DNA of 39,579 nucleotides from a virus. The stretch lies in the UHGV virus genome UHGV-0251828. One strand, given 5' to 3'. Both the position numbers and the translations under genes were made by a program. Below the pieces are notes generated by a model. The model ran no database searches and was not told the origin of the DNA. It saw nothing but the letters and a program-made list of their open reading frames with translations. Each line of letters opens with the position of its first letter. The stretch's first letter is position 1. This document shows, in pieces, positions 18,160-39,579 of the stretch.

Positions 18160-18236
18160 GTGGCATTAGCTCAGTTGGACAGAGCAACCGCCTTCTAAGC
18201 GGTTGGTCGCAGGTTCGAATCCTGCATGCCACGCCA
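18160..18236 (+). tRNA. tRNA-Arg (anticodon TCT)
   Basis: Hand-folded cloverleaf: 7-bp acceptor GTGGCAT/ATGCCAC, D-stem GCTC/GAGC, anticodon stem ACCGC/GCGGT with loop CTTCTAA, T-stem GCAGG/CCTGC, T-loop TTCGAAT, encoded CCA. Confidence 0.9.
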
Positions 18237-26950: not shown

Positions 26951-27181
26951 TCATGAGTAGAAGAAGTATGCCAGTTCTGCTTTTGAGCGCAGCCATTGTC
27001 TTGTTTTACAGGCTTTAAAAAGCCCATTCATCAATACCTTACCTGGCATTTTGCGCTTACCTGTTAAGTGAGTCTGGATATAGTGACTCGTCGTTCCGGC
27101 TTCCTGTGCGAAGGCTTCACGCTCATCCGGAGTAAGTGCAAGCCAGTGCTTTTTGAAATCGAAATGTCCGTTATCGCTCAT
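26951..27181 (-). CDS. Cro-like early regulator (76 aa)
   Basis: Divergent from the repressor gene across a three-operator region. Confidence 0.55.
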   Translation of the reverse strand: MSDNGHFDFKKHWLALTPDEREAFAQEAGTTSHYIQTHLTGKRKMPGKVLMNGLFKACKTRQWLRSKAELAYFFYS

Positions 27182-27335: not shown

Positions 27336-27920
27336 ATGAAAAGTATCCAGGACGTCCGCAGGCAAAATCTCAACGACTTGATCGACCGTGAATTCAATGG
27401 TGTTCAGACGCGGATGGCAGAAAAACTTGGAACTCAGGCAAATCTGGTAAACCGCTGGGCTCTTGGCAAGAAGGTTATCGGCGACCAGGTTGCGCGAAAA
27501 ATTGAAGCTGCCGCCAATAAACCCCGTAACTGGCTTGATATTGATCGTTCGCTTTCTCAGGAGGGTTTTCAGCCTGTCGGCCCGAGCGATATAGGTCAGC
27601 TGGCGGCTCACAACCTGGAACGCTGGATGAGCGAAAGCCGCGACCTTTCAACACAGGGAAAACTTCACCGCGCATCCGGCGTCGCCCAGGTGACAATCAG
27701 CCGTCTGTTAAACAATGAGGTCAGCGTTTCCATTTCCACCCTGGAGAATGTTGCATCCGCATTCGGGCGTCACGGATATGAATTACTGATTCACCCGCAC
27801 GACCCCGCGACTATCAACTATGACCGCTCGCGCTACGCATTGTTACCTGAAACAGAGAAGGCAAAGATCGAAAGTTACATTGAATTTGTCATCAACCAGA
27901 ACGAAAAAAGCAAACAATAA
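27336..27920 (+). CDS. prophage repressor with two XRE-type HTH-like segments and no recognisable S24 peptidase domain
   Basis: 194-aa track ORF; position divergent from cro; strong terminator downstream. Confidence 0.75.
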   Translation: MKSIQDVRRQNLNDLIDREFNGVQTRMAEKLGTQANLVNRWALGKKVIGDQVARKIEAAANKPRNWLDIDRSLSQEGFQPVGPSDIGQLAAHNLERWMSESRDLSTQGKLHRASGVAQVTISRLLNNEVSVSISTLENVASAFGRHGYELLIHPHDPATINYDRSRYALLPETEKAKIESYIEFVINQNEKSKQ

Positions 27921-38233: not shown

Positions 38234-38318
38234 GTTAAATCTCCAGATAGTCGCAGCACCCGTTGCGCCGCATATCTGGTTATTCTATTACCTGAAAAAC
38301 CACATATGGATAGAAAGA

Positions 38319-38334
38319 CTGTGAATATGAACAG
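38319..38334. promoter_or_regulatory. LexA (SOS) box-like CTGTGAATATGAACAG
   Basis: Fits CTGT-N8-ACAG with AT-rich centre. Confidence 0.55.
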
Positions 38335-38337
38335 ATA

Positions 38338-38352
38338 TTACCTTTCGGGTAA
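38338..38352. promoter_or_regulatory. operator-family site TTACCTTTCGGGTAA between two LexA boxes
   Basis: Perfect half-sites. Confidence 0.55.
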
Positions 38353-38391
38353 TTTGCAAAACGTGCTGGATAGCAAACAAATTATTTGATA

Positions 38392-38407
38392 CTGTATAAA
38401 TATACAG
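38392..38407. promoter_or_regulatory. LexA (SOS) box CTGTATAAATATACAG
   Basis: Near-consensus CTGT-N8-ACAG palindrome 23 bp upstream of the 38415 ATG; TTGATA just 5'. Confidence 0.7.
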
Positions 38408-38429
38408 TTATTGCATGGAGAAGATTAAG

Positions 38430-38687
38430 ATGCAGCAGTATCACTATCCACTGGAAGACGGATTTACCGAAAGGATTCACACGCCGGGAGGCGTCAGGTC
38501 ACTGGTGGAAGGATCGCACTTGATGAAATTACTCCGGGATCTCGATAAGGATGGATTTAATGTCGATGGCCCACTTGCCGAACTGACTGCACTGATTAAC
38601 TACGTCACCAGCTCACAGATGTCTATGCGGGATCTGCAAACACATCTCGACTATTGTGCCGAACAATTACGAAAACAAACCAGATAA
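38430..38687 (+). CDS. SOS-regulated small protein (~85 aa), candidate small antirepressor
   Basis: ATG at 38430 with GGAG SD (track ORF starts at 38415). Confidence 0.5.
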   Translation: MQQYHYPLEDGFTERIHTPGGVRSLVEGSHLMKLLRDLDKDGFNVDGPLAELTALINYVTSSQMSMRDLQTHLDYCAEQLRKQTR

Positions 38688-38718
38688 GGTTTGCAATTAC
38701 CAAGTGGAGTGCTTATAT

Positions 38719-38733
38719 TTACCTTTGCGGTAA
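38719..38733. promoter_or_regulatory. operator-family site TTACCTTTGCGGTAA
   Basis: Perfect half-sites between the small SOS gene and the Bro-N gene. Confidence 0.55.
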
Positions 38734-38823
38734 ATTTACATAGCACTCCTCTTGTGCCATAGTAATCGGGCACTGGCAAAATCCAGTGCCGGGATTGGCG
38801 TCCCGAGTTACTAAGTGGCGCAT

Positions 38824-38847
38824 ACCACGCCAGACGTGGTTTTTTTA
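38824..38847 (+). terminator. intrinsic terminator-like hairpin in the leader of the Bro-N gene
   Basis: CCACG-CCAGA-CGTGG hairpin followed by TTTTTTT. Confidence 0.5.
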
Positions 38848-39002
38848 TGCGTTAAGCACAGCTATATCCGAATTATGGTGGGCTGGGCAGGGGTCCGAAA
38901 GGACGCCGGTACCACTTAGGCCGGTACGCCAACCTTGTCCAGTTCACCACCAGTAATTGGCGTTGCGGTGGTGATTAAAATCACTAAGTGGAGATAACCA
39001 CC

Positions 39003-39579
39003 ATGGCTAATGCTCAAACTGCCATCTTCAAATTTGAATCTGTTAACCCTATCCGTTCCATCATTATCGATGGCCAACCATGGTTTGTAGCCCAAGACGT
39101 TTGTAGTGCGCTGCGTATCCAAAACGTCACCCAAGCACTTGAAAAACTGGATGATGATGAAAGGTCTATGTTCAACATAGGGCATGAACATCGTGCAATT
39201 TTTGACAGCCGAGTAAAAGAGATCAACATCATCTCCGAGTCAGGCCTCTACACACTGATCCTCCGCTGCCGCGACGCAGTGACACCAGGCACTATCCCAT
39301 ACCGCTTTCGTAAATGGGTTACAGGTGAGGTTCTTCCTCAGATCCGCCGCACCGGAAGTTACATTAAAAACTCGCTCCCGCAGGAAGAGCGCATAAAGAT
39401 GGTTGCCGACCAGGTAGCCAACGCCACAGCATCAGCAGTGATGCAGGCGATGAAGATAGAGAACAAAACCTACAGTGCCCCACTGAAGCCCGGCTACCGC
39501 AGCCTGATTCATTCGCCGTCTGGTGTTCTCGGCCTGACGGAGAACTCACTGCTGATGAATCTGCTGAACCAGTTACAGG
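39003..39579 (+). CDS. Bro-N/KilA-type antirepressor-like protein, 3'-truncated by the window edge
   Basis: 192 codons without stop; GGAG SD; motif NPIRSIIIDGQPWFVAQDVCSAL. Confidence 0.7.
   Translation, partial: MANAQTAIFKFESVNPIRSIIIDGQPWFVAQDVCSALRIQNVTQALEKLDDDERSMFNIGHEHRAIFDSRVKEINIISESGLYTLILRCRDAVTPGTIPYRFRKWVTGEVLPQIRRTGSYIKNSLPQEERIKMVADQVANATASAVMQAMKIENKTYSAPLKPGYRSLIHSPSGVLGLTENSLLMNLLNQLQ

Follow-up and report, generated by a model that had tools for sequence, protein, structure and literature searches.

The end of the viral sequence analysed here, a 39.6-kb window (39,579 nt) from an epsilon15-like podovirus assigned to Uetakevirus, raises the question of how an antirepressor gene is controlled. 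In Uetakevirus (epsilon15, phiV10, ZX5, HEMP4), the choice between lysis and lysogeny has been treated as a matter of repressor and antirepressor proteins, and the control of the antirepressor itself has been left open (PMC9782041). Overexpression of the Bro-N antirepressor of ZX5 (ORF4) shifts this phage towards lysis, and the ZX5 paper makes no mention of an RNA regulator (PMC9782041). By megablast, ZX5 matches window positions 38300-39579 with 94% identity over 81% of their length, which is a DNA-level match and not a protein comparison. The antirepressor gene of the window, hereafter ant, lies on the plus strand, as do the RNAs, pairing sites and isrK promoter described below; it starts with the ATG at 39003, and not at 39004, behind a Shine-Dalgarno (SD) sequence GGAG at 38990-38993, and is cut by the window end at 39579. 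Its product matches Pfam Bro-N at 72 bits and PHROG 130 'anti-repressor Ant' at 1e-50, and the complete antirepressor of the near-identical phage HEMP4 (locus L131) has 236 aa. In Uetakevirus records, the sole annotation at the segment preceding this gene is 'terminator'.

We propose, with a probability of roughly 80%, that this segment is an antisense-RNA immunity module of the P1 immI type that sets the antirepressor level. A preliminary description of the locus had labelled it a possible RNA switch in the ant leader. Pairing with the SD region, competition by the upstream copy and a short transcript, all proposed there, are supported by homology and covariation, while a ligand-type or purely cis-acting switch is not supported, and the arrangement corresponds to the module known as immI in P1 and as IsrK in Gifsy-1. 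A permissive Rfam search of 38650-39100 for aptamer or riboswitch families returned only isrK, C4 and c4-a1b1. The locus holds a known system that had been correctly caught and that is unannotated in Uetakevirus; mechanistically, it is of no new kind.

The promoter-proximal part of the module is an IsrK-type small RNA at 38770-38846. The Rfam model RF01394 (isrK) aligns there over its positions 1-77 of 77 and reaches 67.2 bits, where the gathering score is 50. The predicted parts are hairpin 1 (38770-38789), hairpin 2 (38790-38805), a linker that is single-stranded and, at the 3' end, a Rho-independent terminator. The terminator hairpin, already pointed out in the preliminary description as following the upstream repeat copy, is real: its stem, of only 6 bp, occupies 38824-38840, its T-run 38840-38846, and an independent terminator scan agrees. 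A short regulatory transcript ending at this terminator had also been suggested and is predicted here as well, the RF01394 match ending at the same place. Model RF03163 (c4-a1b1; Weinberg et al. 2010, PMC2864571) overlaps isrK at 38757-38809 with 44.3 bits (E = 4e-10), below its gathering score of 46.7, which VT2-Sakai, P27 and P1 pass. This model likewise covers the promoter-proximal part, hairpins 1 and 2 and site a1, but it stops before b1 and the terminator, both of which are within the isrK model.

The IsrK-type RNA carries two sites that recur in the ant leader. Site a1, TTGGCGT at 38795-38801, lies in the loop and 3' arm of hairpin 2, is identical to a' and complements a2; it corresponds to IsrK nucleotides 26-32, where the Gifsy-1 mutations G28A and G31A fall. 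Site b1, CTAAGTGG at 38811-38818, lies in the linker, is identical to b' and complements b2. It stands 5 nt upstream of the terminator stem and at about -60 from the C4 5' end, the latter position being shared by most related loci. By analogy with P1 and Gifsy-1, we infer that a1 and b1 would act as decoy copies of the ant target sites. An anti-terminator joining GUGG of b1 to CCAC in the terminator's 5' arm was considered by eye and dropped, as it has 4 bp only and phiV10-type sequences do not conserve it.

Between this small RNA and the gene lies a C4-type antisense RNA. Model RF01695 (C4) matches 38871-38954 over its positions 1-87 of 87 with 66.0 bits, against a gathering score of 45, and the predicted mature RNA (GGTGGG...CACCACC) has 75 nt, at 38877-38951, by analogy with the P1 c4 RNA, whose boundaries were taken from the annotation of the P1 record. 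The minimum free energy (MFE) fold of 38877-38951, at -43.1 kcal/mol, shows a long closing stem enclosing two hairpins, a fold that the preliminary description had not seen. Both the 9-nt loop of hairpin 2 and the 7-nt stretch 3' of this hairpin are unpaired in this fold; the former holds b2, CCACTTAG at 38912-38919, which complements b1 and b', and the latter is a2, ACGCCAA at 38926-38932, which complements a1 and a'. After the closing stem, an unpaired ACC(A) tail resembles a tRNA acceptor end and, as a feature of the modelled fold, is suggestive of processing from a longer precursor. The P1 c4 RNA, of about 77 nt, is reportedly processed from a longer precursor by RNase P, in work by Hartmann et al. 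from 1995.

The targets of this RNA are found in the ant leader. Site a', TTGGCGT at 38957-38963, begins 5 nt past the predicted C4 3' end and sits 20 nt upstream of b', CTAAGTGG at 38984-38991, which overlaps the first two bases of the ant SD. In the leader MFE fold, a hairpin at 38967-39002 is formed by GGTGGTGAT (38967-38975) and ATAACCACC (38994-39002) and presents b' and the SD in its loop. By eye, this pairing is kept with changed bases in phiV10 (AGTGGT/ACCACT) and in locus L003 (GGTGATC/GATCAC), and its 5' arm GGTGGTGAT has an alternative partner in the C4 3' end, TCACCACC at 38944-38951. Folding, which had been suggested as a check, gives the leader as a whole an MFE z-score of -4.75, but sequestration of the SD by b2 is absent from this fold, nested folds being unable to represent the proposed contacts. 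Cofolding of C4 with the leader returned unchanged monomer folds, which is expected because loop-loop contacts are pseudoknotted and not nested, and it is uninformative on the interaction. A duplex energy calculation, which ignores intramolecular structure, gave meaningless long duplexes and was not used as evidence.

All four elements named in the preliminary description exist, although the coordinates then given were shifted by one base. The second triad, formed by TTGGCGT at a1 and a' and its complement ACGCCAA at a2, had been missed. Within the window, the 9-mer ACTAAGTGG has exactly 2 copies (38810-38818 and 38983-38991; 0.11 expected), and the 8-mer CTAAGTGG, which is 100% complementary to CCACTTAG, occurs 3 times over both strands, always inside the element. 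These single-window statistics are modest, since three copies of the 8-mer were reached in 2/100 shuffles and TTGGCGT is not enriched across the window. This, and the mechanical ORFs that overlap the region, would suit chance repeats, or a small protein-coding ORF that happens to contain the repeats (e.g. 38786-38956, 56 aa), and it is the comparison with related loci that decides the matter.

This comparison covers 40 classes of sequence, taken from phage records (P1 included) and from viral contigs, with 30 b2 loop alleles and 15 a2 alleles. The isrK-C4 tandem is present in 9/9 phage loci found by DNA similarity, and an annotated antirepressor comes next in most of them. In most classes, the b2 loop has a perfect complement of 7-10 nt both at about -60 and at +31 to +53. 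As aligning hypervariable sites would require building the alignment from complementarity itself, cognate and non-cognate pairs were compared as a less circular control: the longest Watson-Crick run at the b site is 8 vs 4 nt upstream and 9 vs 4 nt downstream (medians), and that at the downstream a site is 7-8 vs 4. The a site lies at +3 to +10 of the C4 3' end in 40/40 classes, mostly at +5 to +7, and in 35/40 classes b' either overlaps the start codon or has its end 0-16 nt ahead of it. The flanks in the window and in phiV10 are about 92% identical, and a GT-to-AA change in all three copies of the b site separates the two, the window and the HEMP4 type having CTAAGTGG and the phiV10 type CTAAAAGG. 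The survey further shows, at the level of sequence, that the a and b specificity sites reassort.

The repeats are not due to chance because their three copies co-vary across 30 alleles, by compensatory three-way change at fixed positions; the a triad co-varies likewise. Furthermore, two independent covariance models match above their curated cut-offs, and the ORF that begins at the AUG at the C4 5' end varies among classes from 3 to 37 codons, or is open to the end of the examined stretch, which is incompatible with a conserved protein. The comparative data thus refute the chance or coding explanation, to which we attach practically no weight. By the same evidence, the pairing that had been proposed between CCACTTAGG and the SD-containing CACTAAGTGGAG is supported, the complement being the hairpin-2 loop of a C4 RNA that scores above the RF01695 cut-off and the sites co-varying. 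Competition by the upstream direct copy gains support as well, in that this copy lies in the single-stranded IsrK linker and the three sites change together, which is consistent with a role as competitor.

A consensus scan places a putative sigma-70 promoter of isrK at 38735-38763 (TTTACA, 17 nt, TGC-CATAGT), a candidate with a 9/12 match, an extended -10 and a predicted start at about 38770. It ends 7 nt 5' of position 1 of the Rfam isrK model and is kept in phiV10 and two Klebsiella phages. With transcripts, C4 processing, the sign of the regulation and the function of IsrK as a decoy all taken over from P1 and Gifsy-1, the antisense module would operate as follows. Most transcripts from this promoter would end at the terminator (38824-38846), giving the 77-nt IsrK-type small RNA, while read-through transcripts would run through C4 into the ant leader and gene. 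C4 would leave b2, in a hairpin loop, and a2, in the unpaired stretch beside it, free to pair with b' at the SD and with a', and this pairing would block ribosome binding, so that no antirepressor would be made and lysogeny and immunity would be kept. IsrK, with its exact a1 and b1 copies, would rival the ant leader as a partner of C4, whether in cis in read-through transcripts or in trans as the short RNA, and this competition would tune or relieve the C4 block. Immunity specificity would be set by the a and b site sequences. Counting against this mechanism, the predicted helices are short (8 bp for b2:b' and 7 bp for a2:a') and b' reaches no further into GGAG than its first two bases.

The same sites could also work within a single molecule. 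In a purely cis-acting leader switch, b2 and a2 would pair with either a1/b1 or a'/b' and so decide access to the ant SD, with no processed C4 acting in trans; such a device would follow a Gifsy-1-like 'structure A / structure B' logic and is compatible with the immunity-module explanation. All six sites are indeed on one predicted transcript, and a promoter scan predicts no separate C4 promoter in the window. The long isrK-orf45-anrP transcript of Gifsy-1, translationally silent by itself, is activated by the cis IsrK mutations G28A and G31A. Further possible alternative pairings (TCACCACC/GGTGGTGA, GGTGGTGAT/ATAACCACC and ATGGTGG/CCACCAT) would also serve a switch of this kind. On the other hand, the C4 fold with its tRNA-like closing stem, which scores as RF01695, is conserved beyond what a cis switch needs, and the homologous P1 RNA is a processed repressor acting in trans. 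A stable Salmonella RNA (STnc1160) accumulates from the C4 position, and in some related loci (L104, L117 and L123) a promoter of the TATAAT type separates C4 from the IsrK terminator. An exclusively cis-acting switch is therefore unlikely in our estimation.

The antisense module that we favor has its closest model in P1 and P7, where the c4 RNA pairs around the ribosome-binding site, blocks ant synthesis and determines heteroimmunity (PMC12197685; PMC8546580). The immI region of these phages shares with the present locus the order of promoter, a1, b1, terminator-like hairpin, C4, a' following C4 by 3-7 nt, b' at the next gene's ribosome-binding site and antirepressor, as well as the C4 fold with its pairing sequences in the hairpin-2 loop and the adjacent single strand. 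The layout of the P1 record is identical, with a1, b1, the c4 RNA and then target sites, there called a2 and b2, annotated as 'repression of icd ant translation'; a1 and b1 are termed 'putative' targets only. The upstream region of P1 aligns with the isrK model over its full length but, at 35 bits (E = 5e-6), falls short of the gathering score (50), whereas the window has a full IsrK (67 bits). The a/b sites of P1 are TTGACAG/GTTAGTG, as against TTGGCGT/CTAAGTGG here, the antirepressor is a Bro-N protein here and Ant1/Ant2 in P1, and P1 is a plasmid prophage while the present phage is a 39.6-kb podovirus. Moreover, a search for a coupled leader ORF of the icd or orf45 type found none between C4 and ant in the window. 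The published coupling mechanisms, which involve icd in P1 and orf45 in Gifsy-1, are therefore not transferable unchanged; since b' is directly on the ant SD, control need not pass via translational coupling or Rho.

Gifsy-1 provides the second model. Its isrK-orf45 (STnc1160)-anrP region also has an IsrK with three hairpins and a terminator, a C4-type RNA and an antirepressor gene, and its short IsrK acts in trans to switch on translation of the antirepressor that follows (Hershko-Shalev et al. 2016, PMC4825925). Only for this Salmonella Gifsy-1 IsrK has it been shown that the RNA binds Hfq and that the long isoform is activated in trans (PMC4825925). The IsrK mutations G28A and G31A were combined there with compensatory C162U and C159U (PMC4825925); positions G28/G31 and C162/C159 map to a1 and a2 here, so that the experimentally validated pairs G28-C162 and G31-C159 have their counterpart in the a1:a2 helix, offset by one nucleotide. 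The Gifsy-1 mRNA arises by terminator read-through, as we propose here. Unlike the present locus, Gifsy-1 exerts control via orf45, which starts from the AUG at the C4 5' end and is coupled to anrP; here the corresponding frame, from the ATG at 38875, stops after 14 codons at the TAG at 38917-38919, inside the b2 loop. The target here is the ant SD, and no antQ-type gene is known to be linked to it.

A further comparison bears on the level at which C4 would act. The CI RNA of satellite phage P4 is a processed structured RNA that lies between upstream and downstream target copies (seqA/seqC), an analogy cited by the Gifsy-1 authors and drawn here from its description. While CI brings about premature transcription termination of replication genes, the downstream target here is the ribosome-binding site of the antirepressor. 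C4 could nevertheless act on nascent a1/b1 (seqA-like) and a'/b' (seqC-like) mainly through premature termination, placed at the IsrK terminator or Rho-dependently in ant, and not through a translation block. The Gifsy-1 authors regard IsrK as structurally homologous to P4 SeqA and liken STnc1160 to CI RNA, models C4 and c4-a1b1 share Rfam clan CL00128, and b1 lies close to the terminator stem. A translational block of P1 icd is also said, in work by Biere, Citron and Schuster from 1992, to lead to Rho-dependent termination before ant. Termination as the main mode of action is made improbable by b', which occupies the SD or start codon in nearly every class, a signature of translational control, and by the terminator scan, which found no terminator between a'/b' and the ant start. 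Constitutive STnc1160 in Gifsy-1, moreover, failed to counteract IsrK as the termination model predicted. A block of antirepressor translation by a small RNA is known from sar RNA in P22 immI, which prevents its start (PMC12197685); sar is, however, a true cis-antisense RNA, transcribed across the ant ribosome-binding site on the other strand, whereas C4 here is encoded upstream on the same strand and would pair through short loops.

The C4/IsrK module offers a concrete and testable account of Ant silencing in lysogens. It predicts heteroimmunity between phages that are about 92% identical and differ at the b site, CTAAGTGG type versus CTAAAAGG type. The covariation survey also joins two literatures, on Salmonella IsrK and on P1 c4, that a 2025 review lists apart. 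A bolder reading, which we put forward as tentative and short of probable, is that IsrK and C4 may be halves of one conserved RNA circuit with three sites. The short RNA would be a sponge dedicated to the antisense repressor, and the two independently reassorting addresses (at least 30 b and at least 15 a alleles) would make up a combinatorial immunity code among co-resident prophages. In the present phage, this circuit would target the ant SD itself, with no leader peptide involved, beside a stand-alone copy of the antirepressor C-terminal domain under LexA-box control and an operator belonging to a genome-scattered set. If true, a small podovirus unrelated to P1 would have a multi-part immunity system like that of P1.

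In P1 immI, the Oc4 repressor operator lies beside the promoter; similarly, an operator-like palindrome TTACC-N5-GGTAA at 38719-38733, nested in a longer palindrome at 38701-38754, abuts the -35 of the putative isrK promoter. This motif has 16 copies in the window, against 0.48 expected, two of them between divergent repressor-like and cro-like genes, and by its placement it may serve as an operator. A putative LexA-box site is at 38392-38407. For a 90-aa ORF, the assignment to DUF724 was discarded, as the Pfam match is sub-threshold; PHROGs and BLASTP were informative for this ORF. A repressor candidate of 194 aa is encoded at 27336-27917.

The segment between the 90-aa ORF (38415-38687, plus strand) and the Bro-N gene, which we read directly, belongs to a well-described family (P1 immI / IsrK-C4) that is unannotated in Uetakevirus. 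Indeed, an Rfam scan of the entire window at curated thresholds returned three matches, two of which lie in this segment on the plus strand: a full-length isrK (RF01394, 38770-38846, 67.2 bits against a gathering score of 50) and a full-length C4 antisense RNA (RF01695, 38871-38954, 66.0 bits against 45). The third is a tRNA gene elsewhere (18160-18233, plus strand, 73 bits), whose anticodon loop, read by eye as CUUCUAA, would give the anticodon UCU (Arg). A permissive Rfam search of the segment placed RF03163, 'a1, b1 targets of C4 antisense RNA', just below threshold at 38757-38809 (44.3 against a cut-off of 46.7) and found no family besides these three.

The window is an almost complete genome of an epsilon15-like podovirus, and in this region its closeness to Uetakevirus members is 98% identity for Escherichia phage HEMP4 and about 92% for phiV10, TL-2011b and ZX5. 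The phiV10 record carries here only a 'terminator' and the Bro-N CDS. The protein encoded downstream matches Pfam Bro-N and PHROG 130 'anti-repressor Ant' at 1e-50 and is, by sequence family, an antirepressor. Overexpression of the ZX5 Bro-N antirepressor (ORF4) lowered the prophage titre a thousand-fold; that paper mentions neither an RNA regulator, nor operator details, nor LexA (PMC9782041).

The preliminary description had proposed an RNA switch or a short regulatory transcript in the antirepressor leader, and every sequence element on which it relied is present, one base away from the position it gave. ACTAAGTGG occurs as a direct repeat at 38810-38818 and 38983-38991, its only two copies in the window (0.11 expected), and the exact complement of its 8-mer CTAAGTGG lies at 38912-38919. 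The Shine-Dalgarno sequence of ant, GGAG (38990-38993), stands nine bases upstream of the ATG at 39003, from which the reading frame gives a clean translation and the Bro-N match. The terminator (stem 38824-38840, T-run to 38846) is that of IsrK; the upstream copy (b1) falls within the single-stranded IsrK linker, and the complement (b2) forms the loop of the second C4 hairpin. A second triad of the same geometry, which had escaped the preliminary description, consists of direct copies of TTGGCGT at 38795-38801 (a1, in IsrK hairpin 2) and 38957-38963 (a', five bases 3' of C4), with the complement ACGCCAA (a2) at 38926-38932, single-stranded and immediately 3' of C4 hairpin 2. Folded alone, C4 adopts the long closing stem and two hairpins typical of the family, leaving b2 and a2 unpaired.

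A blastn search with 38741-39010 matched 241 phage records, among them those of Stx phages, of phages of Klebsiella, Yersinia and Salmonella, and of the SfV 'immunity region'. In all nine phage loci fetched, isrK is followed by C4, both above the Rfam cut-offs, and most have an annotated antirepressor 3' of the pair. Viral contigs, scanned with the conserved 5' end of C4, yielded 120 stretches; from these, the phage loci and the window, 99 C4 copies were parsed. Once P1 is added, they reduce to 80 unique sequences, which fall into 40 classes and comprise 30 hairpin-2 loops and 15 a2 sequences. In most classes, the b2 loop has a perfect 7-10 nt complement about 60 nt upstream of the C4 5' end and another at +31 to +53 downstream, and a2 has a 7-nt complement at about -76; downstream, all 40 classes have a 7-8 nt complement of a2 at +3 to +10 (+5 to +7 in most). 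The longest Watson-Crick run at the b site has a median of 8 upstream and 9 downstream for cognate pairs, against 4 at either site for non-cognate ones, and at the downstream a site it is 7-8 against mostly 3-5.

The cleanest single example is phiV10, whose flanks are about 92% identical to those of the window but whose 270-bp segment is just 79.6% identical: its b1/b2/b' read CTAAAAGG / CCTTTTAG / CTAAAAGG against CTAAGTGG / CCACTTAG / CTAAGTGG here, the same two-base change appearing in all three copies. A locus of the comparison set, L003, shows the matching change at the a site (TTGGTCT / AAGACCAA / TTGGTCT). The alleles of the a and b sites also reassort: the loop of the window is combined with ACGCCAA here and with AAGACCAA in L029. 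In 35 of the 40 classes the downstream b copy ends 0-16 nt 5' of a start codon or overlaps it; in two further classes it lies just within the coding start, and in one the gene apparently starts with GTG. This is strong comparative evidence that the triads function by RNA-RNA pairing and act at the initiation of translation. Chance repeats or a coding ORF are excluded by these comparative data, and the interpretation first offered for the leader was essentially right, with isrK and C4 above Rfam cut-offs, covarying sites and b' at start sites.

Transcription would start from the putative promoter at 38735-38763 and partially read through the IsrK terminator; C4 would be processed from the transcript, translation of ant would be repressed, and IsrK would compete. 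In P1, c4 is reportedly processed by RNase P (Hartmann et al. 1995). A purely cis-acting switch and a P4-like control of termination are both variants of the same base-pairing system and are compatible with this scheme. In the ant leader, GGTGGTGAT (38967-38975) can pair with ATAACCACC (38994-39002), which places b' and the Shine-Dalgarno sequence in an apical loop, or alternatively with the C4 3' end, TCACCACC; the first pairing is retained with altered bases in close relatives, and the modelled hairpin is likely a kissing-loop target.

The P1 GenBank record annotates exactly the same layout: promoters P1c4/P2c4 with the C1 operator Oc4, 'putative a1' and 'b1' sites and a 77-nt c4 RNA, then sites a2 and b2 ('repression of icd ant translation'), icd and ant1/ant2. 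The covariation rule holds in P1. Since the P1 upstream region scores above the c4-a1b1 cut-off and aligns along the whole isrK model, terminator-like hairpin included (35 bits, E = 5e-6, under the gathering score of 50), IsrK appears to be equivalent to the a1/b1 element of P1. The c4 RNA of P1 and P7 is described as repressing Ant synthesis in trans, by pairing around the ribosome-binding site, and as the determinant of heteroimmunity (PMC8546580; PMC12197685). In Gifsy-1, two RNAs come from the isrK promoter, the short sRNA and, by read-through, an isrK-orf45-anrP mRNA; the latter is translationally silent and is activated in trans by short IsrK, the IsrK mutations G28A and G31A are compensatory with downstream C162U and C159U, and a stable RNA, STnc1160, accumulates 3' of IsrK (Hershko-Shalev et al., PMC4825925). 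Nucleotides 26-32 of IsrK, numbered as in Rfam, correspond to the a1 site (38795-38801 here), and the partners of the mutated positions map to a2 with a one-base offset; these experiments thus validate the a1:a2 helix of the family.

Variation from known members is, by sequence, minor: the ant Shine-Dalgarno sequence appears to be targeted directly, with no leader ORF. While the direct target is the leader gene icd in P1 and, in Gifsy-1, orf45, which starts at an AUG overlapping the C4 5' end, in the window the corresponding ATG (38875), which likewise overlaps the C4 5' end, opens a frame of 14 codons (38875-38919) closed by a TAG within the b2 loop, and it is the Shine-Dalgarno sequence of ant itself that b' overlaps; control of ant is therefore probably direct, without translational coupling. 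Among the 40 classes the length of this frame varies between 3 and 37 codons, or no stop occurs within the stretch examined, a variability which argues that the peptide is not conserved.

In some viral contigs (loci L098, L113, L025 and L051) the complete isrK-C4-target module is present twice, at a distance of 650-1300 nt, and the two differ in their a and/or b alleles; these would be tandem immunity modules in a single element. In L104, L117 and L123 the IsrK terminator and C4 stand further apart, and the spacer has a TGGTATAAT- or GGTTATAAT-type -10 element, so that C4 may have its own promoter in some lineages; the 24-nt spacer of the window has no predicted promoter.

The palindrome TTACC-N5-GGTAA (at most one mismatch) occurs 16 times in the window against 0.48 expected, as 15-nt sites at 207, 17823, 20965, 20983, 24897, 24959, 26881, 27218, 27266, 27978, 28040, 33062, 34988, 38106, 38338 and 38719. 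Most copies are apparently intergenic, at least two (20965, 20983) and probably 38106 being inside mechanically listed ORFs; two lie where a repressor-like gene (27336-27917) and a cro-like gene (26951-27178) diverge, another abuts the isrK promoter, and a further copy precedes the 90-aa ORF. Scattered over the genome in this way, the sites resemble a set of operators and recall the C1 operators dispersed in P1. A long imperfect palindrome at 38701-38754 (arms CAAGTGGAGTGCTTATATTTACC / GGTAAATTTACATAGCACTCCTCTTG; perfect over 17 bp in phiV10) encloses the operator-like site at 38719 and also overlaps the isrK promoter at its -35. A fourth, degenerate b-like copy, AATTACCAAGTGGAG (38695-38709), is contained in its left arm. 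The palindrome may be an extended operator or, as RNA, a hairpin terminating the transcript of the 90-aa ORF.

Just 5' of this ORF lies a perfect LexA-box core, CTGTATAAATATACAG (38392-38407), kept in phiV10 as CTGTGTATTTATACAG; a second CTGT-N8-ACAG (38319-38334) is not conserved. The ORF product belongs to PHROG 450 (unknown function) and, over 78 aa, shares 44% identity with residues 151-228, the C-terminal domain, of Ant, the full-length sequence of which was taken from HEMP4. The LexA-box core and this likeness suggest a putative SOS-controlled, stand-alone antirepressor-like module beside the RNA-controlled Ant.
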